From Candidatus Poribacteria bacterium (GTDB lineage Bacteria; Poribacteria; WGA-4E; WGA-3G), in assembly GCA_965215265.1 (NCBI GenBank), contig OZ244048.1, positions 4,384,001 through 4,448,000 of the forward strand: a stretch of 64,000 bases of DNA. Direction: 5' to 3'. The position numbers were made by a program, and so were the translations under genes. Below the pieces are notes generated by a model. The model was not told the origin of the DNA. It did no database searches and saw only the letters and a list, made by a program, of their open reading frames with translations. Below are positions 10,985 through 63,485 of the stretch, piece by piece; the stretch's first letter is position 1, and every line of letters begins with the position of its first letter.

Positions 10985-11881
10985 TTAAGGGGTAATAGCC
11001 CTTGCACACCGGAAACCGATACCGAAGATCGTGGTCTGCGGGTAACTGTTGTCGATTCTAAAGATACGCGCTTCACGATCAGATCCCCAATAGTCACCTC
11101 CGCGCACAGCGAGATCTGAGTCAAAACTTCTATAGTTCTCTATAATTTCAGCGATATTCGGGTTCGAATCAAACGGATCTTTATTCAGACACCACTCTGC
11201 CACATTGCCTGCCATGTCATACAGCCCATATCCGTTCGCCGCATAACTCCCCACAGGCGTTGTATCGCCTACATTATTACCGTAGTTCGCATCGTCCGGC
11301 GTTATCGTGTTCCCCCACGGGTATCTCTTACCAACTAATCCACCGCGGGCCGCATGCTCCCACTCTACCGCTGTTGGCAGACGCTTACCTGCCCACGCTG
11401 CATACGCCATTGCACCATACCAATTCACATTCGTCACAGGATGGTCCCCCTTACCCCAAGGATAGTCATTACCGTCCCAATCTTTGAGGTAATTACCTCT
11501 GTGGAGAGCATCCGATATATTGGCTTCTTGCCACTCGGGATTCGCCAGCACAAAAGTTTGATACTCTGCGTTCGTCACCTCGTGTGTGTCCATGTAGAAC
11601 GCGTATTCTATATGGATAGTCCGCACGTCATCTATGGTGTCCCGAGTGAACGAGCCTGCAGGAATCAGTGCCATGCCTTCGGGAGGCTCTGGTATTGTCT
11701 CGGCTGGTGGTTCTGGTTCCTCGGCTGGTGGTTCTGGTTCCTCGGCTGGTGGTTCCGGTATTTCTTCGGTTGGTGACACTACGGTCGCCAAAGTCTTTTG
11801 GTTTCTATCGCAGCTTGTGATAGAAACGCAGAGTGCCACAGCAAACAATAGGGTCAAAATCGATACAAACTTTCTATTCAT
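10985..11881 (-). CDS. FGE-sulfatase (SUMF1/CLec-fold) lipoprotein
   Basis: Lipobox-like ITSC, Pro/Glu linker, EVTNAEY, RLPTAVEWEHAARGG, NGYGLYDMAGNVAEW, GFRC; start set at ATG 11881. Confidence 0.9.
   Translation of the reverse strand: MNRKFVSILTLLFAVALCVSITSCDRNQKTLATVVSPTEEIPEPPAEEPEPPAEEPEPPAETIPEPPEGMALIPAGSFTRDTIDDVRTIHIEYAFYMDTHEVTNAEYQTFVLANPEWQEANISDALHRGNYLKDWDGNDYPWGKGDHPVTNVNWYGAMAYAAWAGKRLPTAVEWEHAARGGLVGKRYPWGNTITPDDANYGNNVGDTTPVGSYAANGYGLYDMAGNVAEWCLNKDPFDSNPNIAEIIENYRSFDSDLAVRGGDYWGSDREARIFRIDNSYPQTTIFGIGFRCARAITP
11699..11759 (-). repeat. 21-bp coding tandem repeat x3 (EPEPPAE linker)
   Basis: ctcggctggtggttctggttc repeated. Confidence 0.85.
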
Positions 11882-16490: not shown

Positions 16491-16595
16491 TTGCGAGAAA
16501 AGTGATTGAAGAATCATAACCTAGTGAGGTTCAGACGAGATTTACACACGAGTTATCAAAACATAGACGTTGATGGTACGGAGATATACAAAAAA
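16491..16595 (+). repeat. ~87-bp dispersed repeat, copy with parent-gene tail (ARKVIEES*)
   Basis: gaagaatcataacctagtgagg...cgagatttacacacg...ggagatatacaaaaaa. Confidence 0.9.
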
Positions 16596-20963: not shown

Positions 20964-21220
20964 TTTTTTGTATATTTCAGCCCAATAAAGGCTGCTGCTA
21001 TTTACAACCCTGTGAAAATCTCGCTAGAGCCGCTTTATGCTATGCCTAAGGAATCTCCGATTTTTTGTATATGTTAGCCCAATAAAGGCTGCTGCTATTT
21101 ACAACCCTGTGAAAATCTCGCTAGAGCCGCTTTATGCTATGCCTAAGGAATTTCAGACGAGATTTACACACGATTAAACAAAATCATAAGCGTTGACGGT
21201 ACGGAGATATACAAAAAAAA
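20964..21220. repeat. Composite of three ~87-bp-family copies: two minus (20964-21044, 21061-21141) and one plus (21142-21220)
   Basis: 97-bp direct duplication plus a divergent plus-strand copy; ends TTTTTTGTATAT ... ATATACAAAAAA. Confidence 0.9.
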
Positions 21221-23192: not shown

Positions 23193-23419
23193 TTTTTTGT
23201 ATCTTTCAGCCCCATCAAGGGTTATGTATTGTTAAATCGTGTGTAAATCTCGTCGGAGCCTCACTAGGTTATGATTCCTCAAGAACTTTACGCGCTAACT
23301 CTTCAATCTCCGCTGGGTCGCCACCCTGATCTCGAACAGTTTTCTCCCAATCAATACTCACCCGATGAGCCGCTGGCGGGGCCCAAAAGAATTGAACCCA
23401 GTTTAGTAAGGAAATTTTG
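23193..23419 (-). repeat. ~87-bp repeat copy with the longest parent-gene remnant
   Basis: Core 23193-23277; upstream open frame ...NWVQFFWAPPAAHRVSIDWEKTVRDQGGDPAEIEELARKVLEES*. Confidence 0.85.
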
Positions 23420-24955
23420 CTAATACTGCCGCCAATATGGGATTGCCACAGTTTCCCCAGTCCGATTGATAATACCGATACACCGGGCGATGACTCTATT
23501 ATTTGCGTCAACGCCAGCGGATTCAATGCGAAAAGCGTGTGAGCGATAGGTTACCCAATCCACAATGTTCCTAAACGTCTCAAAATCAATTTCCTCAATT
23601 TCTAAAAGTTGGGATATTGCGGTGAAAGGGTTTCCTTTGATTTCTTCTGCTGTTAAATTTTGTATCTCCGGGGTGTTAGGTACTTCTTCTTCTCTCCGGG
23701 CAACAATCGCTTGTGCTTTTTCGCCATCCATTCCCGGCAAGAGTGCTAAGGTTTCCGGCGGTGCCGTATTTATATTGATTAACCCGCTAAGCGTCTCCTC
23801 ATCTTTTATGGTAACTTTATCAGCGATGCTGACAAATTCGTCTTGCGTTAACATTTTGACCTCTTTTAGCGCATCAATGTTCTGGAAATTCCCTTGTGAG
23901 TTGCGGTGTGCCACAATACGTTGGGCAATTCCCTCATCAATACCTTCAAGCGATTGAAGTGTCTCTATATCTGCAGTATTGATATTAATCTGTCCGTTTT
24001 CTGCCTGCTGCTCCTTTTCTTGGTTATCTTGTTCTTCGTTACCTTGTGTGGTAAGTCGAGCTCGGACGGAATTGAAGAGTTCATCGGAGACGGCTTGGAT
24101 GTCTACTAATGCTGCTATCTGGTCAAATTCGCGTTGTTGGATGAACGACTCCGCCTCATCTGGCGTGAAAACGGGCCCGTTATTTCCCTGAATTTGGGTT
24201 AGCTGCGAAGATTCTGCCGTATTCACGTTGACGCGCTCCTGCCCTTCTGCATCTGTATTTGTATCAATTGAATAGACTGTTGCTAAATGCACTAATCCGA
24301 TTCCACTTGTGGGGATATTTTCCTGTCTCGTGCCAGTTTCTGTTACTGGTATTGCAGTCTCTTCCTGCTGTGTAGTCGATTGGACGGGTGCCGACGAATT
24401 TTGTTGTACCCCGTAAAGCAGCTCTGCTGACATGTCATCAACGCCTGCAAGCGCACGAACGGTGCGGTATGGCTGCCCTTCCACAATGTTGTTCGCTAAT
24501 TCCTGCGTAAAGGCATCATCCGGGTTTGCCCCTATGTGTACCAACAAATTAAGGATGAGCGAAACGTCAGCCGTATTGAGGTTAATCTTTGATGCTTCGT
24601 CTATAATGTTAACGCTATAGGTTAAAAGGTTTCCGCCTTGAATACCGTCTTCAATTTGTCCCTCAATCGGTTCACCCCAATTTTCACCAAGGGCATCAAA
24701 AGGTATCTGATCGTCGCGTAGTAGAGCGAGTGCCCATTCAAAACCGGCTCTGGCAGCATAGTGAAATTTTTCGCGATGCAAGAAATTTCGCTGTGCACGC
24801 TGCTCCAAGTGAATCGAATAGAGCAGTTGTGTCGCGAGGATGGAGAGGAGTGTCAAGATCCAGAGCGTTGAAATGAGAGAGAGACCTTCCTCGTTGCTGC
24901 AGCTGCATGCCACTTTATTTTTTTTAAATATGGGCACGTATGCAGGATTTTCCAC
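23420..24955 (-). CDS. gspK: T2SS minor pseudopilin GspK-like protein with several helix-hairpin-helix repeats
   Basis: G|LSLISTLWIL leader, DEASKINLNTA, repeated ININTA...L..L.GI motifs. Confidence 0.85.
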   Translation of the reverse strand: MENPAYVPIFKKNKVACSCSNEEGLSLISTLWILTLLSILATQLLYSIHLEQRAQRNFLHREKFHYAARAGFEWALALLRDDQIPFDALGENWGEPIEGQIEDGIQGGNLLTYSVNIIDEASKINLNTADVSLILNLLVHIGANPDDAFTQELANNIVEGQPYRTVRALAGVDDMSAELLYGVQQNSSAPVQSTTQQEETAIPVTETGTRQENIPTSGIGLVHLATVYSIDTNTDAEGQERVNVNTAESSQLTQIQGNNGPVFTPDEAESFIQQREFDQIAALVDIQAVSDELFNSVRARLTTQGNEEQDNQEKEQQAENGQININTADIETLQSLEGIDEGIAQRIVAHRNSQGNFQNIDALKEVKMLTQDEFVSIADKVTIKDEETLSGLININTAPPETLALLPGMDGEKAQAIVARREEEVPNTPEIQNLTAEEIKGNPFTAISQLLEIEEIDFETFRNIVDWVTYRSHAFRIESAGVDANNRVIARCIGIINRTGETVAIPYWRQY

Positions 24956-24965
24956 TGTTTTTTCC

Positions 24966-25053
24966 TTTTTTTGTATATAGGAGCCCCGTAACGCTTTATG
25001 TTTTGTTAATGACTGTGTAAATCTCGTCGGAGGTTTTGATGTTTAGATTCAAT
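24966..25053 (-). repeat. ~87-bp dispersed repeat copy (gspJ-gspK spacer)
   Basis: Nearly identical to 25933-26019. Confidence 0.9.
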
Positions 25054-25093: not shown

Positions 25094-26041
25094 TTAATTT
25101 GCAGCTGCGCCTGGCAAATGAACCATTGTTGATTGCGTCATCATTCCCGGCTGTGTTACGTTTTCGCCTTCTTGCAGGGTTGATGCTGTCTGCGGGCTTG
25201 AGAGATCTGCGTCTTCCCCTTGCACTGAGATTAGAATTTGAACTGCAAGCGGCGTACTTTCAGTTTCGTCCCATGAATCATACCAAGTTTCCTCGCCATC
25301 AAAGTACTTCAAATCGAAACTGACAATTCCAGAAATGAGGGCTGCGAATTGAGAAGAGATCGGTTCGCCATTTTCGTCGGTTTCAGGTGCATCTCCGGTC
25401 TCTAATAAATTTCCAATAACCAGCTGCGGGTCAAGTGCAGTGGTTGTAACCCGATAGAGGACCAGTGCCTCAGTTTGCTGCTCAGAACTCTGTTCAGTTC
25501 GGGTTGGAAGTGCTGTTTCGCCCAGCGGTATTTCATTTCCGAGGAAATAGGCAACGCGCTGTACATCACTAACGAGTGGAGACATAGAGATACTTTGGGT
25601 TCCAACGCTTTCTGCAGCCAATTGGAATAAAAAGGGATCTGGGTCTGTGTTTACTAACGTGACGAAGCTAAGTATGTCCCGGTCTCCGGATTCCATCGGC
25701 ATATCTTGTGTGTATAAAGCAAACTCCGGTTCTTCAGGCGATACCTGTATGTGTCGTAAATCGTTCACGAGTTTGTCCAACGCGACGCGACTTCTTTGGG
25801 CGGCTAACGTCTTTGTAGCAGTTCTATGGTAGACATCTACCGCTGTCTTAAAGACAAAATACGAAGTGCCTCCAAGAATAACCAGAATGCTAACAGCTAC
25901 AAGCATTTCAATAAGTGTGAAGCCCCTATCAGTTTTTTGTATATAGGAGCCCCGTAACGCTTTATGTTTTGTTAATAACTGTGTAAATCTCGTCGGAGGT
26001 TTTTGATGTTTAGATTCAATTTTTTGTAAATGCACTGTCAA
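25094..26041 (-). CDS. gspJ: T2SS minor pseudopilin GspJ-like
   Basis: RG|FTLIEMLVAV N-methylation motif; C-terminal W.DSW....PLAVQI; leader lengthened by the repeat insertion. Confidence 0.85.
   Translation of the reverse strand: MTVHLQKIESKHQKPPTRFTQLLTKHKALRGSYIQKTDRGFTLIEMLVAVSILVILGGTSYFVFKTAVDVYHRTATKTLAAQRSRVALDKLVNDLRHIQVSPEEPEFALYTQDMPMESGDRDILSFVTLVNTDPDPFLFQLAAESVGTQSISMSPLVSDVQRVAYFLGNEIPLGETALPTRTEQSSEQQTEALVLYRVTTTALDPQLVIGNLLETGDAPETDENGEPISSQFAALISGIVSFDLKYFDGEETWYDSWDETESTPLAVQILISVQGEDADLSSPQTASTLQEGENVTQPGMMTQSTMVHLPGAAAN
25933..26019 (-). mobile_element. 87-bp repeat inserted in frame in the gspJ leader
   Basis: TTTTTTGTA at 25933-25941 and 26020-26028, exactly 87 bp apart; removal restores MTVHLQKTDRG|F. 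Confidence 0.75.
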
Positions 26042-26481: not shown

Positions 26482-26602
26482 TTTTTTGTATATCTCCTTA
26501 CCATCAACGTCTATGTAATGATAGCTCGTGTGTAAATCTCGTCTCAGCCGTTCTAGGTTATGATTCCTCGATAACTTTTCGCGCAAGCTCTTCAATCTCG
26601 AG
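26482..26602 (-). repeat. ~87-bp repeat copy with parent-gene tail (EIEELARKVIEES*)
   Basis: Ends 2 nt before the gspI ATG; weak similarity to the 23.3-kb remnant continues toward 26629. Confidence 0.9.
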
Positions 26603-27856: not shown

Positions 27857-27937
27857 TTCGTGTATTTCAGCCCGATAACGCTCTATGTTGTGTCAATGAA
27901 TGACTGTGTAAATCTCGTCGGAGATTTTCTAGGTTTT
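27857..27937 (-). repeat. ~87-bp dispersed repeat copy (gspF-gspG spacer), degenerate
   Basis: aaacctagaaaatctccgacgagatttacacag...gggctgaaatacacgaa with a 4-bp internal duplication. Confidence 0.85.
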
Positions 27938-29270: not shown

Positions 29271-29618
29271 CTTTTATATATCTCCGTACCATTAACGCTT
29301 CTGCTTTGATGGCTCGTGTATAAATCTCGTCGGAGGCTCCTGATGTTTAGATTCAATCTTTTATATATCTCCGTACCATTAACGCTTCTGCTTTGATGGC
29401 TCGTGTGTAAATCTCGTCGGAGGCTCCTGATGTTTAGATTCAATCTTTTATATATCTCCGTACCATCAACGCTTCTGCTTTGATGGCTCGTGTATAAATC
29501 TCGTCGGAGGCTCCTGATGTTTAGATTCAATCTTTTATATATCTTCGTACCATCAACGCTTCTACTTTGATGGCTCGTGTATAAATCTCGTCGGAGGCTC
29601 CTGATGTTTAGATTCAAT
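29271..29618 (-). repeat. Tandem array of four 87-bp units (gspE-gspF spacer)
   Basis: Units start at 29271, 29358, 29445 and 29532 and differ by only a few substitutions. Confidence 0.95.
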
Positions 29619-44115: not shown

Positions 44116-45303
44116 TTATTCGCTGCGATGTATAAAAGAAGCGATGCGGCGATGCATGAAGAGCTCTATTACGATGGCGATGCCTATTGCCACCGCACAG
44201 AGGAGGTACGGACTTTGAACACCTAATGGAGAATCCGCTGCGATACCGCCGAAAAAGGGACCGAGCAAGATACCGACACCGAGCGTCGCTTCATGCCAAC
44301 CGCTTTTGTTGCCCTTATCCTTTTGCCGGTCTAAACCGTAGTAGAGGCTGCTGAAATAAGTGAAGGCGGCAGAGATGCCGATAACGCCAAATGCACATGC
44401 CCAGAGCGGTGTGCGTTGTATCTGCCAGAGTCCAATGAAGCTCAGAATTGCGAGTATCTGCACCGTTAAGAGGGGTGCTAGCCGGTAGTGCCATCGGGTT
44501 GAGTATCTGGTGCCGAGTAGCAGAAATACCGCTGTTTGTAAGGTTCCGAGTGTTAGCATCAAGTTTCCGAACGTCTGTGTGGGAATGCCCATTTCTAATG
44601 TTAGTTTTGGGGTGATTTGCCGGAGGATGCCGAGTGCAAACCACGATGCGAAATTGGCACATCGTGCAAGGTTGAGATGGGTCGCGCGCACCGCGGGTGA
44701 GGGCGAGTCTGGCTTGAGTCGTTCGGATTCAGGTAGCGGTGTCGGCACGGAAGGTTCAGGTTTATTGAAAAAGAACGTTGCGAACGTCAGTGCGCTGAAA
44801 GCGGCGGCAAGGTAGAACGGCGTGAAGGGGTTGGCATCGTGATAGAGGTAGCCTGATGCTGTTGGCCCCAAGGTCATCCCGATGCTCCAGAAGAGATTAA
44901 AAAACATCACTCGCTGTAGCAGTATGTCTTCTGCCTCGCGTTCAGCCAACCACGCTTCGTAAGCTGGCCAAAAGAGTGCCATACTGATGCCGACAGTGGG
45001 GAAAATGAGGAGTAGATGAAAGGCGTTACGGCAAAAAGGGAGTCCGATGGAGGCGGCCCCGAGTAGCAGACATGCGGCGTAAAGGACGTGCCGCCGGCCT
45101 AGCCGGTCGGAGAGCCGCCCGAACGGGATTGCGAGAAAGACAAAAAAAGCCGTGGTTAGCGCCATTAACCCGCCGAGAAACGTTGAGGAGAGCCCCAGGT
45201 AACTGGTATAAAAAGCGGTGTTCGTCAACAAGCCACCGAACGCGAAATCTATCAGGAGTGCGGGCAGATAGACAGTCAGCAATTGACTGAGTTGAGGAAT
45301 CAT
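44116..45303 (-). CDS. MFS transporter
   Basis: GRLSDRLGRR motif A, about 12 hydrophobic segments. Confidence 0.92.
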   Translation of the reverse strand: MIPQLSQLLTVYLPALLIDFAFGGLLTNTAFYTSYLGLSSTFLGGLMALTTAFFVFLAIPFGRLSDRLGRRHVLYAACLLLGAASIGLPFCRNAFHLLLIFPTVGISMALFWPAYEAWLAEREAEDILLQRVMFFNLFWSIGMTLGPTASGYLYHDANPFTPFYLAAAFSALTFATFFFNKPEPSVPTPLPESERLKPDSPSPAVRATHLNLARCANFASWFALGILRQITPKLTLEMGIPTQTFGNLMLTLGTLQTAVFLLLGTRYSTRWHYRLAPLLTVQILAILSFIGLWQIQRTPLWACAFGVIGISAAFTYFSSLYYGLDRQKDKGNKSGWHEATLGVGILLGPFFGGIAADSPLGVQSPYLLCAVAIGIAIVIELFMHRRIASFIHRSE

Positions 45304-45380
45304 AACCTAAGGAATCTCCGACGAGATTTACACACGAGTTGTCAATATCTAAGCGTTGATGGTACGGAGATATACGAAAA
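45292..45380 (+). repeat. ~87-bp dispersed repeat copy overlapping the MFS start codon
   Basis: gaggaatcataacctaaggaatctccgacgagatttacac...ggagatatacgaaaa; nearly identical to 52615-52700. Confidence 0.9.
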
Positions 45381-46949: not shown

Positions 46950-47036
46950 TTTTTTTGTATACTGGAGCCCAATAAAGGCTGCTGCAATGGACACCCTAGC
47001 ACAAAACTCGTCGGAGGGTTCTGATGTTTTGATTCA
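46950..47036 (-). repeat. ~87-bp dispersed repeat copy (divergent subfamily)
   Basis: gaatcaaaacatcagaaccctccgacgagttttgt...gcagcagcctttattgggctccagtatacaaaaaa. Confidence 0.85.
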
Positions 47037-47187
47037 TAGCATAGAAAACCTCCGATCTATAGATGGCAGGTATAAGGTTATCTTGTCTCATGGACAGACA
47101 AAGTGGCGAGATAGGTAATATCGCGAGTCCTCGAGGGCTCGCTTTGCTACCTTTTACTCGCCACTCACTGGGAATACCTAACCTGCC

Positions 47188-47248
47188 ACGAGATTTACAC
47201 ACGAGCTATCATTACATAGACGTTGATGGTACGGAGATATACGAAAAA
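47188..47248 (+). repeat. 5'-truncated ~87-bp repeat copy
   Basis: Nearly identical to the 26482-26542 copy. Confidence 0.9.
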
Positions 47249-52583: not shown

Positions 52584-52700
52584 GTCTTCGAGGAACTTGC
52601 GAAAAAAGTGATTGAAGAATCATAACCTAAGTCATCTCCGACGAGATTTACACGCGAGTTGTCAATACCTAAGCGTTGATGGTACGGAGATATACGAAAA
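52584..52700 (+). repeat. ~87-bp repeat copy with parent-gene tail (VFEELAKKVIEES*)
   Basis: Same core; coding-like upstream extension. Confidence 0.9.
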
Positions 52701-55038: not shown

Positions 55039-56951
55039 AACCCATCGCCGTTGATGTCCTCCGCTGCAGCAGGGGCAGTAGGAGGACGGAGGTCCCAGAG
55101 CAGCACGGTGCCGTCACCACTCCCACTTGCGAGTGCACTGCCGTCTGGGCTGAACACTACGCTCCAGACAATATCCGTATGTCCAGTGAGAGTTTTAAGG
55201 GGTTCGCCTGTGGTGGCATCCCAGAGCCGAACGGTCTTGTCCCCACTCGCGCTGGCGAGATACCGGCCATCTCTGCTGAACGCTACGCTACTGACAGTCC
55301 CGGTATGCCCAGTGAGTGTTTTGACGGTTTTGCCTGTCTCCACATCCCAGAGCCGAACGGTCTTGTCCCCACTCGCGCTGGCGAGATACCGGCCATCTCC
55401 GCTGAACACTACGCTACTGACAGCCCACTTATGCCCAGTGAGTGTTTTGACGGTTTTGCCTGTCTCCACATCCCAGAGCCGAATGGTGTTGTCCCAACTC
55501 CCACTTGCGAGCGTGCGGCCATCTCCGCTGAACGCTACGCTCAAGACAGCATCCGTATGCCCGTTGAAAGTGCGTATTGTTTCGCCCGTGGTAAAATCCC
55601 ATACACGAACCGTGAGGTCCCCGCTCCCGCTAGCGAGAGACGTGCCATCTGGGCTAAACGACAAGCTACTGACAGGAGCTGCATGCCTAGTGAAAGCACG
55701 GATGTGTTCGCCTGTCTCTATATTCCACAGCCTAAAAGTCCAGTCCCCACTCGCGCTGGCGAGGTGTTCGCCAGCGAGGCTAAATGCTACGCTCAAGACA
55801 TCACGCGTATGTCTAGTGAAAGTGCGTATTGTTTCACCTGTGTTGACATCCCACAGCCGAACGGTTGCGTCCCAACGTCCTCCGCCGGTGGCGATGTGTG
55901 CGCCATCTGGACTAAACGACATGCTCCTGACAGTATGCGTATGCCCGTTGAAAGTGTGAAGGGTGTCACCTGTCTCTATATTCCAGAGCCGAACGGTCGC
56001 GTCATAACTCCCGGTAGCGATGTGTGCGCCATCGGGGCTAAACGCGACGCTCATGACGGGAGCCGTATGCCCGCTGAAAGTGTGGATTGTTTCGCCTGTA
56101 TTGACATCCCACAGTTGAACGGTCGCGTCATAACTCCCGGTGGCGATGTGTGCGCCATCGGGGCTAAACACCACGCTCATGACAATATCCGTATGCCCGT
56201 TGAAAGTGTGGATTGTTTCGCCTGTGTTGACATCCCACAGCCGAACGGTCGTGTCATAACTCCCGGTGGCGATGTGTGCGCCATCGGGGCTAAACGCGAC
56301 GCTCCTGACTAAATACTTATGTCCTTTGAAAGTATGAAGGGTGTCGCCTGTCTCTATATCCCAGAGCCGAGCACTTTTGTCCATACTTCCACTAGCAAGG
56401 TGTGTGCCATCTGGGCTAAACACCACACTCGTGACACCTGCCGTATGTCCTTTGAAAGTGCGTATTGTTTCGCCTGTGTTGACATCCCACAGCCGAATGC
56501 TTTTATCCTGACTCGCGCTAGCGAGGTGCCTGCCATCAGGGCTAAATACCACGCCCTCGACAGTCTGCGTATGCCCGTTGAAAGTGCGTATTGTTTCGCC
56601 TGTGTTGACATCCCACAGCCGAACGGTCTTGTCCCCACTCGCGCTGGCGAGAGACGTGCCATCTGGGCTAAATGCGATGCTCCAGACAACATCCGTATGG
56701 CCAATGAGCAGCTCGAGCGGTTCTTCGGTTTCCGCATTATAGAGCCAAATACCAATCCCGCCTGCTACTGCAAGACGCGACGCATCCGGCGAATACTGCA
56801 CATTTCTTATAAAGCCTTTACCGAGGCGTGCAATCGCCCCCTCCGGTAAACCCCACTGCGTCTCCGCAGGATACTGACCCGACGCAACCGGTAGGAAGGA
56901 ACTTGACACGATAAGACTTAGAAAACAGAATAACGTTAGGCGCTTTTTCAT
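55035..56951 (-). CDS. Secreted WD40-repeat protein
   Basis: Signal peptide, LPEGAIARLGKG, about 13 GH...FSPDG...LWD repeats of 126 bp. Confidence 0.93.
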   Translation of the reverse strand: MKKRLTLFCFLSLIVSSSFLPVASGQYPAETQWGLPEGAIARLGKGFIRNVQYSPDASRLAVAGGIGIWLYNAETEEPLELLIGHTDVVWSIAFSPDGTSLASASGDKTVRLWDVNTGETIRTFNGHTQTVEGVVFSPDGRHLASASQDKSIRLWDVNTGETIRTFKGHTAGVTSVVFSPDGTHLASGSMDKSARLWDIETGDTLHTFKGHKYLVRSVAFSPDGAHIATGSYDTTVRLWDVNTGETIHTFNGHTDIVMSVVFSPDGAHIATGSYDATVQLWDVNTGETIHTFSGHTAPVMSVAFSPDGAHIATGSYDATVRLWNIETGDTLHTFNGHTHTVRSMSFSPDGAHIATGGGRWDATVRLWDVNTGETIRTFTRHTRDVLSVAFSLAGEHLASASGDWTFRLWNIETGEHIRAFTRHAAPVSSLSFSPDGTSLASGSGDLTVRVWDFTTGETIRTFNGHTDAVLSVAFSGDGRTLASGSWDNTIRLWDVETGKTVKTLTGHKWAVSSVVFSGDGRYLASASGDKTVRLWDVETGKTVKTLTGHTGTVSSVAFSRDGRYLASASGDKTVRLWDATTGEPLKTLTGHTDIVWSVVFSPDGSALASGSGDGTVLLWDLRPPTAPAAAEDINGDGL

Positions 56952-57381: not shown

Positions 57382-60120
57382 TTAAGGCGTAACAGCCCTC
57401 GCACAACGGAACCCGAAGATGCCGTCCGTGAACGGTGGGGTACTCCTGCTGCGAGCGGCGACACGCACGTAGATAGGAGTAAGGAACCAACTCCCGCCAC
57501 GCAACACGCGAGATGAGGTAACATTTGTGTAGTTATCTATAATCTCATCCAGATTCGCGAGCGTACTGTCAGACACACCACTCAGCGGATTACGAGACGG
57601 AGACGCAGAATAGAAATCCACATTATACGCATCAAGACACCACTCCCACACGTTGCCTGCCATGTCATATAGCCCATACCCGTTCGCCGCATAACTCCCC
57701 ACAGCCGTTGTACCGCCTACATTACTAACGTAGTTCGCATCGTCCGGCGTTATCGTGTCCCCCCATGGGTATTTCTTACCAACTAACCCACCGCGTGCCG
57801 CATACTCCCACTCCGCCTCCGTTGGAAGACGCTTCCCTGCCCACGCAGCATAAGCCATCGCCGCATACCACGACACATTCATCACAGGATGGTCCCCCTT
57901 ACCCACTGGATAGTTATTACCTTCCCAACGGCTTAGGTAAAAACCATCATGGAGGGCATCCGGAATCCGCGTCTTCTGCCACTGCGGGTTCGCCAGCACA
58001 AAACTTTGATACTCGGCGTTCGTCACTTCGTGCGTATCCATATAGAACGCGTCCACATACACTGTATGCACAGGCTGCTCTTCACCATGGGCCTCGGCAT
58101 CGTTGCTGCCCATCTGGAACTCGCCCGCGGGAATGAGTGCCATCCCTCCCGGTGCCGGCGGCACGGAAGGAGTCACAGCCCTCGCACACCGGAACCCGTA
58201 GCTGCCATTGGTGTCCGTAGGGGTATCTCCGCGGCGATTAGCGGCACGCAGGAAGAGTGAATCAAAAGACCAGCTACCGCCGCGCAACACGCGATGAGAC
58301 TCAATATTGGTATAGTCCGCTACAATCTCAGCCAGATTCGCGAGCATACTGCCAGACACACCACTCAGCGGATTACTAGACGGAGACGCAGAATAGAAAT
58401 CCACATTATACGCATCAAGACACCACTCGTAAACGTTGCCGGCCATGTCGAACAGCCCATACCCGTTCGCAGCATAACTCCCCACAGGACGGGTGTTCCC
58501 TACATTCCTACCGTAGTTCGCACGCACAGAGGATATCGTCTTTCCCCACGGATACTTTAACCCTAGCCAACCGCCGCGCGCCGCTTTCTCCCACTCCGCC
58601 TCCGTTGGAAGACGCTTCCCTGCCCACGCCGCATAAGCCATCGCCGCATACCACGACACATTCACCACAGGATGGTCCCCCTTACGCTTAGGATACTTAT
58701 TACCGTCCCAATCGCTTAGGTAATTACCATCATGGAGGGCATCCGGAATCTGCGTCTTCCGCCACTGCGGGTTCGCCAGCACAAAACTTCTATACTCGGC
58801 GTTCGTCACTTCGTGCGTATCCATGTAGAACGCGTCCACATGCACCCTCCGCACAGGCTGCTCGTCAACATCGGCCTCGGCATCGTTGCTGCCCATCTGG
58901 AAGGTGCCACCGGGGATGAGTGCCATCCCTGCAGGTGCCTGCGGTGCGGGTGGCTCCGGCTCCAGTGCGGGTGGCTCCGGCGGTGTGGGTGGTTCCGGCG
59001 GTGTGGGGAGCTCCGGCGGCGGTTCTGCACTCACACAACGAAACCCGGCGAAGCTTTCCGTGAACGTCGGCTCCCTCTTGAACCTATCGGCGACGCGCTG
59101 GTAACGCACACCAGCACGCCAATTACCACCCCGCAACACCCGCAGTGACTTCACATTTACGCCTGTGTAGTCCGATACAATCTCAGCCAGATTCGCGAGC
59201 ATACTACCAGACACACCACGCAGCGGATTACTAGACGGAGACGCAGCATAAAATGTCTTATCCCACTCATCAAGGCACCACTCGTGAACGTTCCCGGCCA
59301 TGTCGAACAGCCCATACCCGTTCGCCGCATAACTCCCCACAGCCGTTGTATCGTCTACATTCCTATCGTAGTTCGCATCGTTCGCCGTTATCGTGTCTCC
59401 CCACGGATACTTCAGACCTGCCTCCCCACCCCGTGCCGCTTTCTCCCATTCTGCCTCCGTTGGAAGACGCTTACCTGCCCACGCAGAATATGCCATCGCC
59501 GCATACCACGACACATACGTCACGGGATGGTCCCCCTTACCCCCTGGATAGTTATTACCTTCCCAACGGTTTAGATACTTACCGCTGTGGAAGGCATCCG
59601 AAATACGCCCCTTCTGCCACTCGGGATTCGCAAGCAGAAAACTTTTATACTCAGCGTTCGTCACTTCGTGCGTATCCATATAGAACGCGTCCACATGCAC
59701 CAGATGCACAGGCTGCTCGGGATTCCGCGCATCAGCAGCATCGCTGCCCATCTGGAACTCGCCAGCGGGGATGAGCACCATCCCTGCAGGCACAGACGCA
59801 GGCGCCGCAGGCGCAGACGCCGCACCGTTAAACCCCTCTGCTACTAACGCCACGTCCCCTATATCCACTACACTATTCCCGTTCAAATCTGCCGAACTGT
59901 TACCGCGGGTTCCCAGGCGCGCCGCTACCAGGGCCAAATCCACTATATCCACACGGCCATCACCATTCACATCCGCATCACCTTTGACAGCCGAAAGCAC
60001 ACCGACATCCGCAGCCACGCTTACCCCTTGCGCACACACATCGCTCAAAACGCCCAAACTCAAAACCGTGAGAACACACGCCAACATCGACAACATCATT
60101 GACACACTTTTAGCAAACAT
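57382..60120 (-). CDS. Secreted dockerin-like + three tandem FGE-sulfatase (SUMF1) domains
   Basis: GGAGGT RBS before ATG 60120; three copies of F.MGS...EVTNAEY...RLPTEAEWE...NGYGL.DMAGNV.EW...RGG.W...GFRC. Confidence 0.93.
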   Translation of the reverse strand: MFAKSVSMMLSMLACVLTVLSLGVLSDVCAQGVSVAADVGVLSAVKGDADVNGDGRVDIVDLALVAARLGTRGNSSADLNGNSVVDIGDVALVAEGFNGAASAPAAPASVPAGMVLIPAGEFQMGSDAADARNPEQPVHLVHVDAFYMDTHEVTNAEYKSFLLANPEWQKGRISDAFHSGKYLNRWEGNNYPGGKGDHPVTYVSWYAAMAYSAWAGKRLPTEAEWEKAARGGEAGLKYPWGDTITANDANYDRNVDDTTAVGSYAANGYGLFDMAGNVHEWCLDEWDKTFYAASPSSNPLRGVSGSMLANLAEIVSDYTGVNVKSLRVLRGGNWRAGVRYQRVADRFKREPTFTESFAGFRCVSAEPPPELPTPPEPPTPPEPPALEPEPPAPQAPAGMALIPGGTFQMGSNDAEADVDEQPVRRVHVDAFYMDTHEVTNAEYRSFVLANPQWRKTQIPDALHDGNYLSDWDGNKYPKRKGDHPVVNVSWYAAMAYAAWAGKRLPTEAEWEKAARGGWLGLKYPWGKTISSVRANYGRNVGNTRPVGSYAANGYGLFDMAGNVYEWCLDAYNVDFYSASPSSNPLSGVSGSMLANLAEIVADYTNIESHRVLRGGSWSFDSLFLRAANRRGDTPTDTNGSYGFRCARAVTPSVPPAPGGMALIPAGEFQMGSNDAEAHGEEQPVHTVYVDAFYMDTHEVTNAEYQSFVLANPQWQKTRIPDALHDGFYLSRWEGNNYPVGKGDHPVMNVSWYAAMAYAAWAGKRLPTEAEWEYAARGGLVGKKYPWGDTITPDDANYVSNVGGTTAVGSYAANGYGLYDMAGNVWEWCLDAYNVDFYSASPSRNPLSGVSDSTLANLDEIIDNYTNVTSSRVLRGGSWFLTPIYVRVAARSRSTPPFTDGIFGFRCARAVTP

Positions 60121-63268: not shown

Positions 63269-63303
63269 TTTTTTTCCACGAATTTCGGGTAATAAAAACG
63301 GTT

Positions 63304-63416
63304 TTATTAACGTTAAACCCACTTAACGTTAATAAGAATTGTGTTATTAACGTTAAACCCACTTAACGTTAATAAGAGACGGTTTTATTAACGTTAAGCC
63401 CACTTAACGTTAATAA
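63304..63416. repeat. Three tandem palindromic units (13-bp arms, 6-bp spacer)
   Basis: TTATTAACGTTAA-RCCCAC-TTAACGTTAATAA at 63304, 63344 and 63385. Confidence 0.92.
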
Positions 63417-63485
63417 GAGACGGAACTCCGTTGCAACAGCTTTATGTTAAGTTTAGCATAAATTTGATTTGAATGCAATTCGGAT

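Follow-up and report, generated by a model that had tools for sequence, protein, structure and literature searches.

Miniature fragments of the insertion sequence (IS) IS801 share a common right end and differ in their left ends, which lie at short recurrent motifs (PMC3189936). The one-ended transposition of IS801 is the closest documented behaviour to that of a dispersed repeat found in the genome of a Candidatus Poribacteria bacterium (GCA_965215265.1; hereafter G000, a single contig, OZ244048.1, of 4,833,177 bases). The repeat was recognized in a 64,000-nt stretch of this contig (positions 4,384,001 to 4,448,000; hereafter the window, to whose numbering positions refer unless G000 is named), and the unit under study lies at 23194..23277 on the minus strand. 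This ~85-nt unit is a conserved non-coding module that is located directly behind a phage-type gene for a small terminase subunit (terS), and the stop codon of the gene lies inside the start of the unit. The family is of a known kind, i.e. a dispersed intergenic repeat or non-autonomous mobile element, and what is unusual is its traceable phage origin.

As in the IS801/IS91 miniatures (PMC3189936), the copies are nested fragments that run without gaps from one intact end to variable left ends at a recurrent motif, include the 3' part of the adjoining gene, and lack terminal inverted repeats and target duplications. Unlike in IS801/IS91, the gene concerned is that of a phage small terminase and not of a transposase, and no Y2 HUH enzyme was detected in a search in which the control genomes were likewise silent. 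The units also differ in being much shorter, at 20-230 nt, and much more abundant, with at least 822 copies, and head-to-head doublets are common.

[quoted passage not shown] Such elements are generally described as often palindromic doublets, lineage-specific, and present in operons in either orientation, as is the case here. The present family departs from these elements in that it has no RAYT transposase, no parental IS with matching ends, and no detectable target duplication, and in that it is ragged on one side only and bears pieces of a phage structural gene at one of its ends. The 5'-truncated copies of non-long terminal repeat (non-LTR) retrotransposons and short interspersed elements (SINEs), as commonly understood, also have a fixed A-rich 3' end, 5' truncations at all lengths, new copies stacked in old tails, and differences between copy groups that reflect selection on the source genes; however, the host here is a bacterium without a suitable reverse transcriptase (RT), the run of A is short and does not vary, and there are no clear target duplications. 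A conserved non-coding module beside a TerS-type gene recalls small terminases, whose pac or cos recognition sites often adjoin the gene, although this genome contains no large terminase. To our knowledge, phage recognition sites have not been found to spread through a host chromosome. Finally, orphan immunity genes and 3' remnants of effectors form arrays that are reportedly built by sequential displacement (PMC5361080). These arrays resemble the present family in that diverged modules repeatedly arriving at one anchor leave 3' remnants with a common boundary, but they concern a few loci with whole genes, whereas hundreds of dispersed non-coding units are found here.

In unit orientation (GAATCATAAC...TATACAAAAAA), the repeat reads GAATCATAAC .. 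CGACGAGATTTACAC .. GATACAAAAAA. The motif GAATCATAAC occurs five times exactly in the window and 13 times with up to one mismatch, as compared with 3.9 occurrences expected, and 13 was reached in none of 100 shuffles. With nhmmer, 17 copies were identified in the window. A 118-nt query located 37 places in the genome, and the whole contig yielded 528 matches with a first profile and at least 822 with a second-round profile, i.e. ~1.4% of the genome by simple arithmetic (822 x 85 nt). The initial annotation of the window had proposed a fixed 3' end and ragged 5' ends, and this proposal holds genome-wide. Nearly all of the nhmmer matches (754 of 822) finish at model positions 82-84, the 3' consensus being TA(T/G)AC(A/G)AAAA, and conservation is gone 1-2 nt past a run of 4-6 A in the 498 copies without a downstream neighbour. 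When masked flanks beyond this end were clustered, only segmental duplications and very short 3'-terminal pieces of the repeat were common to copies.

The 5' ends, by contrast, are variable. Profile matches start at positions 1-3 in 348 copies, at 4-10 in 219, at 24-26 in 128, and elsewhere in 127. In the GAATCATAACCTA subfamily (n=65), 29 copies retain 0-1 nt of upstream coding sequence, 10 retain 3-6 nt, and 12 retain 11-15 nt, while the stretches in the other 14 measure 20, 27, 30, 33, 33, 33, 44, 51, 62, 71, at least 81, 86, 116, and 134 nt. These retained lengths form a continuous, thinning series, and the distribution of 5' extents is likewise continuous. The size forms comprise pieces of 20-30 nt, a 61-nt unit that begins at CGAGATT, units of ~85-105 nt, palindromic doublets of ~170 nt, the longer, terS-bearing copies, and a single locus that has the complete gene. 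The heptamer CGAGATT is the 5' start of most of the 128 short units and, as (T)CGAGATT, of three terS fragments, and by eye it resembles the terminal GGAGATATAC. The 61-nt units are mostly (104 of 128) stacked directly on the A run of another unit. Seven of the 128 short units are not truncations but copies interrupted by a second, nested element. Among them is the copy at 47188, which had been read as truncated inside the core and is in fact the right arm of a doublet (46952-47247) split by a nested element at 47056-47187.

Approximately 20-25 copies extend upstream into 8-46 codons of one reading frame, and these longer copies contain 20-134 nt of terS. The four frames first noticed in the window are all present, namely ..FWAPPAAHRVSIDWEKTVRDQGGDPAEIEELARKVLEES at 23.3 kb, EIEELARKVIEES at 26.6 kb, (F)EELAKKVIEES at 52.6 kb, and ARKVIEES at 16.5 kb, each followed by a stop. 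At 23.3 kb, the frame is open on the minus strand from just past the stop of the K gene of a type II secretion system (T2SS) to a TAA at 23271-23269, which lies inside GAATCATAAC and thus within the first 10 nt of the repeat. The fragment identified there by tblastn and translation (23269..23391, minus strand) comprises ~39 homologous codons (FWAPP...KVLEES) and the TAA, directly follows the K stop, and is 68% identical to residues 199-236 of an intact 240-aa gene described below; it aligns to the conserved C-terminal block of that protein family, and W200, G220, and P223 are kept. The fragment at 26558..26599 (minus strand) consists of 13 codons (EIEELARKVIEES) and a stop, with its 5' breakpoint between ..TC and GAGATTGA. 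On the plus strand, a remnant of ~20 nt (..ARKVIEES, stop at 16517-16519) precedes the unit 16511-16594 in the copy at 16491..16594, and one of ~27 nt (EELAKKVIEES and a stop) precedes the unit 52617-52700 in the copy at 52590..52700. A tblastn search with the peptide given in the initial annotation revealed ~17 further places encoding 12-46 residues of the same C-terminus, and the other tail variants found by tblastn end in ..EELVLSELEKEGYI, ..EELVLKAIRDDDKEEE..EGDI, and ..LKAINGDDTEEESVDGGQ, each before a stop. The stop of every tail variant, whether TAA, TAG, or TGA, is located inside the first ~20 nt of the repeat, and core subtypes track the tail variants.

Differences between the fragments are mostly synonymous, as had been stated for the four in the window. 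The pooled ratio of non-synonymous to synonymous differences (pN/pS) is 0.14, with pS of 0.14-0.81 (28 pairs of eight fragments), and in the last 11 codons of 13 copies there are 29 changes at third positions versus 14 at first and one at second positions. These values uphold the suggestion that several diverged parent genes existed under purifying selection. Over the adjacent 73 nt of non-coding core, the mean difference is 0.152 (45 pairs), far below that at the neighbouring synonymous sites, which indicates that the core itself was constrained in the sources or donors. One fragment is frameshifted, another contains an in-frame stop after an inserted base (by eye), and the fragment designated 2539 shows two amino-acid replacements in 12 codons; some copies have thus decayed at their present sites. 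Since the differences are mainly synonymous, most of the divergence accrued when the protein was still under selection, and little of it after arrival. The combination of low pN and high pS suggests that the sources were several contemporaneous, diverged alleles and not one slowly changing resident master.

A parent gene, which had been thought absent, is present as an intact paralogue at G000 3557480-3558199. The gene encodes 240 aa within a 249-codon stop-to-stop frame (G000 3557456-3558202) and ends in ..DWEKTVREQGGDPREIEEFVRSELEKEGLI. Its stop is directly followed by the repeat core and then by a second fragment of 30 codons with a repeat of its own, so that a full-length gene followed by the repeat, an arrangement that had been proposed for searching, does occur; there is no second full-length copy in the genome. 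Synteny with the sister genome stops right at the repeat beside the intact gene, and the 5' limit of this longest copy is not settable. A repeat in reverse orientation upstream of the gene was considered as the left end of a terS-bearing element but was rejected as such, being part of a doublet inserted in an IS982-like transposase gene.

The initial annotation had suggested that the parent protein may be the mobilizing enzyme or cargo. It is not an RT, an HUH protein, or a recombinase; by its sequence profile and the gene neighbours of its relatives, we classify it as a small-terminase-type helix-turn-helix (HTH) protein. Two HTH modules were predicted at residues ~20-52 and 80-124 (HTH_23, 2.2e-10, plus HTH_7, HTH_28, and HTH_17), and the protein matched PHROG families 4102 (annotated as 'terminase small subunit'; 1.4e-11) and 309 (3.4e-7), although it remained below the cut-offs of the Pfam TerS families (Sf6_terminase, 17.1 versus 27 bits; Terminase_5, 16 versus 20.3 bits). 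Among 1.84 billion representative proteins, 226 relatives were identified at E<=0.001, most of them of 160-200 aa and aligned to residues 79-236, and six of the eight relatives tested matched PHROG 309 or 4102. A survey of 175 other genomes of the phylum yielded hits in four. Of the three hits that were looked at, two had usable flanks (L025 and L024, both distant homologues), and in both a Terminase_3 large-subunit gene directly follows; the third, L026, is an HTH protein of another kind. In this genome, the intact terS precedes the repeat and not a large-subunit gene (terL). The AF2 model of the parent (mean pLDDT 86.4) displays the HTH helices, and the best Foldseek matches in PDB were the small terminases 3zqq, 3hef, and 4dzj and the phage protein 2ao9, at E 0.087-0.31 and TM-scores on target of 0.23-0.43. 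A profile search of PDB gave nothing below E 0.0095, tblastn against 50,697 phage records gave one weak match in an archaeal virus, and searches of IMG/VR for phage contexts (P0026, P0007, and P0006) gave no confirmed relative.

The repeat is restricted to this lineage. It had no real match in 30 relatives, including the sister species, which is the only other genome of the genus, and the sole outside match was one of 25 nt in G005. Exact 19-mer scans of genome and metagenome contigs hit no more than 3 and 4 loci, each a lone chance match in an unrelated organism, with the limit that records of the genome itself may be excluded from these scans. The T2SS operon of the sister species is collinear with that in the window at 71-81% identity, and its gaps measure 37-118 nt versus 119-410 nt where repeats are present here; relative to the sister genome, the repeats are insertions between the genes of a conserved operon. 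Near-identical copies are frequent, i.e. 75 of 285 full-length copies have a partner of at least 96% identity elsewhere in the genome. The absence from relatives, the short gaps of the sister operon, and these near-identical partners indicate that the family arose after the split of the two species and was recently active.

Neighbouring copies less than 100 nt apart are arranged head-to-head in 163 pairs, tail-to-tail in 18, and in tandem in 201. The head-to-head doublets have a central GAWTC in common and two different arm types, and their outer ends are inverted (T5-6 GTATAT ... ATATAC A5-6). Unrelated flanks harbour ~170-nt doublets at 96-98% identity and a 105-nt unit at 100% identity, indicating that both forms moved as units. 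In one array, 23 nt of host flank are repeated along with the unit, so that arrays also grow by plain tandem duplication. Most copies (692 of 822) lie outside crude open reading frame (ORF) calls.

Taking these data together, we tentatively interpret the family as non-autonomous copies, anchored at the 3' end, of a terminal module that belongs to a phage-like element with terS and came from several diverged donors, a reading that we regard as plausible if still short of probable. It builds on what was observed of the anatomy, copy numbers, selection signature, parent family, lineage restriction, and insertion status relative to the sister genome. The module would have been copied at least 822 times, always with one sharp A-rich 3' end and with a variable reach toward the 5' side. 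Long copies would go back to separate events with several diverged, functional terS alleles as sources, and because there were several such alleles, the donors were presumably phages or phage-like satellites of the host and not one resident master gene. Short units also multiply within the genome, and arrays enlarge by tandem duplication. The copying itself may be a one-ended process at the DNA level that is anchored at the 3' end, as in the ori-end-anchored miniatures of IS801/IS91, and one-ended DNA transfer, which had been suggested at the outset, is possible. The driver would be an enzyme of the donor element acting in trans that is not recognizably encoded in this genome.

Several observations weigh against this interpretation. 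The doublets with two arm types resemble the two ends of a cut-down inverted-repeat transposon, for which a two-ended process fits better, and the true parent may accordingly have been a two-ended element with inverted repeats. No large terminase was found in the genome with PF03354, PF03237, or tblastn with the TerL proteins of two relatives; the intact gene stands alone, and no donor element was seen. Among the 555 copies between co-directional genes, 352 run along the gene direction and 203 are opposed to it. The insertion junctions could not be read: the intergenic DNA of the sister genome is too diverged, and short-read contigs of four independent runs, in which the K gene is seen joined to the fragment (X5, X6, and X9), break at every repeat; neither an empty-site allele nor an informative joint was seen in them. 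No candidate enzyme was found either. Searches of the genome with Y1_Tnp (PF01797; RAYT), which matched 6 of 14 control genomes, and with TnpB, rve, and IS110 gave no matches; Y2_Tnp (PF04986; IS91-type) also gave none, a result that is uninformative because it matched none of the 14 control genomes. DDE_Tnp_1 matched only decayed IS982-like remnants and one false match, and the only Phage_integrase match (a tyrosine recombinase at G000 4117565-4118038) is broken by an internal TGA and retains an open frame of 195 aa; no ordinary Xer-type match appeared in that search. No parental IS with the ends of the repeat was found.

A DDE_Tnp_1 lead beside terS fragments at 485 kb was rejected, since the 848-aa ORF scored under the threshold and resembles a membrane protein of the host. 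One transposase gene, IS982-like by its sequence pattern, is split by a head-to-head doublet (L001 5389-6426; G000 3553389-3554426); a second, 5'-truncated copy is located at G000 3346855-3347412, and a small remnant lies near 4468 kb. The multi-copy gene families of the genome, including Transposase_31 and a family with MgtE_N domains, are not associated with the repeats. The Transposase_31 genes (YhgA/Rpn-like nuclease) form two groups of 15 and 8 near-identical members (e.g. G000 70807-71952 and 1421466-1422590), and the MgtE_N family has 16 members; one representative of each multi-copy family was scanned, and none is consistently near repeats.

In homology-facilitated illegitimate recombination, one homologous and one illegitimate end are joined, as has been documented (PMC3240628). 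Applied to this family, incoming phage DNA with the module behind its terS would recombine homologously in a resident repeat, giving the fixed end, and would join illegitimately upstream, giving the ragged end. We consider this unlikely, even though it would cover the fixed end in the repeat, the ragged 5' joints, the several diverged donors under selection, and the lack of a transposase, and even though a 5-nt overlap (ATTCT) may be present at the 23.3-kb joint (by eye, weak). It does not account for the short copies, ~800 in number, for the stacking of 61-nt and 20-30-nt pieces, or for identical units in unrelated flanks; an anchor of 85 nt at 80-90% identity is short; the breakpoint at CGAGATT common to three fragments is not expected from random illegitimate joints; and foreign DNA is never seen on the 3' side, so that in the donor the module would have to form a physical terminus of the DNA.

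Reverse transcription that copied a terS transcript at its 3' end, either by target priming, as advanced in the initial annotation, or by template switching, would explain the nested set anchored at an A-rich 3' end. Truncated units arranged head-to-tail on earlier A runs would be expected from insertion in A tails or from template jumps of the RT, and the palindromic doublets centred on one point could stem from snap-back second-strand synthesis. Retroposition nevertheless appears improbable, since its expected marks are missing. The sole RT of the genome, a single RVT_1 match, belongs to the cassette of a diversity-generating retroelement (DGR) together with bAvd and two genes with FGE-sulfatase domains. 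The A run of 4-6 nt looks templated and is not variable, and A is not a hotspot of variation among 284 copies (conservation averages 0.73 for A, 0.67 for G, 0.80 for U, and 0.81 for C). The signal of target duplication is weak and not convincing, a flank-shared word of at least 7 nt being present in 19 of 112 isolated copies versus 66 of 560 mismatched control pairs, and doublet flanks show no duplication by eye. Single units fold no better than shuffles (z -1.09 to +1.17, seven folds), RNAalifold found no consensus structure in 284 copies on either strand, and the whole window had no Rfam match at gathering thresholds. The DGR itself looks complete (L002 2737-6944; G000 1416737-1420944) and is followed by two Transposase_31 genes.

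We likewise give little credence to decay, in which complete phages, satellites, or gene cassettes would have been deleted down to the terS end beside a repeat resembling an attachment site. Fragments of diverged, selected alleles would fit repeated visits by different elements, satellites of the Staphylococcus aureus pathogenicity island (SaPI) type are understood to carry terS at the far end of the island beside attR, and one broken integrase gene is present. Against this, fragment copies are wedged in tight gaps of the T2SS operon that measure 37-118 nt in the sister genome, a position for which the decay of full cassettes suggested in the initial annotation is hard to maintain. Decay would also need more than 20 deletions, each of tens of kilobases, ending in the last 140 nt of one gene with the neighbours intact; a left-end remnant was not seen upstream of the fragments; and pieces shorter than the unit are left unexplained. 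That the fragments are functional and selected in place, as peptides mimicking the TerS C-terminus or as operon regulatory RNA, is very improbable, because despite the low pN/pS, the majority of copies co-oriented with their co-directional flanking genes, and the fragment at 26.6 kb that shares its frame with the upstream gene's stop, the fragments range from 11 to 46 codons without a conserved start codon, include one frameshifted and one with an in-frame stop, show no excess folding stability, and belong to a family of which more than a third of the copies in such gaps are antisense.

A bolder form of the preferred reading, in which the copies descend from the terminal module of phage-like donors, is conceivable, although we hold it to be improbable. 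In it, the terS-adjacent module would be the working end of an undescribed class of phage-borne mobile DNA that is copied in a 3'-anchored manner by an enzyme that belongs to none of the transposase and RT families known so far; this could be the terminase itself, with TerS reading SGAGATWTAC motifs and a nuclease nicking beside them. If so, the genome would have been seeded with ~800 recognition-like sites, which could guide the packaging of DNA or conflicts between phage and host. The origin of bacterial dispersed intergenic repeats can rarely be traced, whereas the units described here keep the last codons of a phage packaging gene. These coding remnants serve as both a clock and a pedigree, pointing to numerous independent arrivals from donors that were diverged and functional, and to later multiplication within the genome, in a family that post-dates the split from the sister species and lies inside essential-looking operons. 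Because no recognizable transposase, HUH enzyme, or suitable RT is encoded, the family offers a test case for one-ended, 3'-anchored copying in bacteria, and also for the question of whether repeats can be made to spread by the packaging functions of phages.

The T2SS operon occupies 16.6-31.4 kb of the window on the minus strand and contains genes for E, F, G, pseudopilins, K, a PilM-like protein, and the secretin, with repeat copies in nearly every gap. The K gene (23420-24955, minus strand; T2SSK and HHH_3) is followed by the unit under study, which has a type-1 arm and matches model positions 1-84 at 74.2 bits. A second unit with a type-1 arm (26483..26566, minus strand) matches the same positions at 67.6 bits, and further units on the minus strand fill intergenic gaps at 24968..25050, 25934..26017, and 27857..27937. 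Four tandem units with a period of 87 nt (29272..29615, minus strand) lie between the E and F genes, where the gap in the sister genome is 37 nt. A three-unit cluster of mixed orientation (20965..21217) occupies a gap that measures 8 nt in the sister genome; it consists of two tandem type-2 arms on the minus strand (20965-21044 and 21062-21141) and, head-to-head with them, a type-1 arm on the plus strand (21141-21217), and its last run of A borders directly on the ATG of the following gene. Outside the operon, the unit at 45297..45380 (plus strand) has ~5 nt of recognizable upstream remnant.

In the head-to-head doublet at 46952..47247, the left arm (46952-47035) is on the minus strand, and the right arm on the plus strand is divided into 47031-47055 and 47188-47247. 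The nested element responsible, designated element B (47056..47187), has the inverted ends TGGCAGGTATAAGG.. and ..CCTAACCTGCCA and is inserted at CCGA^CGAGATT of the right arm, and a like interruption was found at L021 4573-4650. Elements of this second family are ~80-130 nt long, have the ends TGGCAGG.. and ..CCTGCCA with an adjoining TCTATAGA, and enter the first repeat at or near GA^CGAGATT; the 14-nt end motif has 579 matches in the genome at up to three mismatches, a count made without a chance control. The ~85-nt repeats are strongly clustered along the chromosome, with 1-3 copies in some 100-kb bins and 40-58 in others, and are dense at 1.0-1.9 Mb and 4.1-4.6 Mb.

The window also contains repeats of other kinds. 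Families of 300 nt and less are common to 11078-11683 and to three tandem places at 57384-59790 (spacing of 783-855 nt), and those shared by the 11-kb and 57.5-59.8-kb regions are probably paralogous genes. Ten copies of a 126-nt tandem period (67-86% identity) are located at 55123-56688 in a G+C-richer part of the window, and three tandem 40-nt units, each with an internal palindrome (..TTATTAACGTTAA..TTAACGTTAATAA..), are present at 63298-63418.

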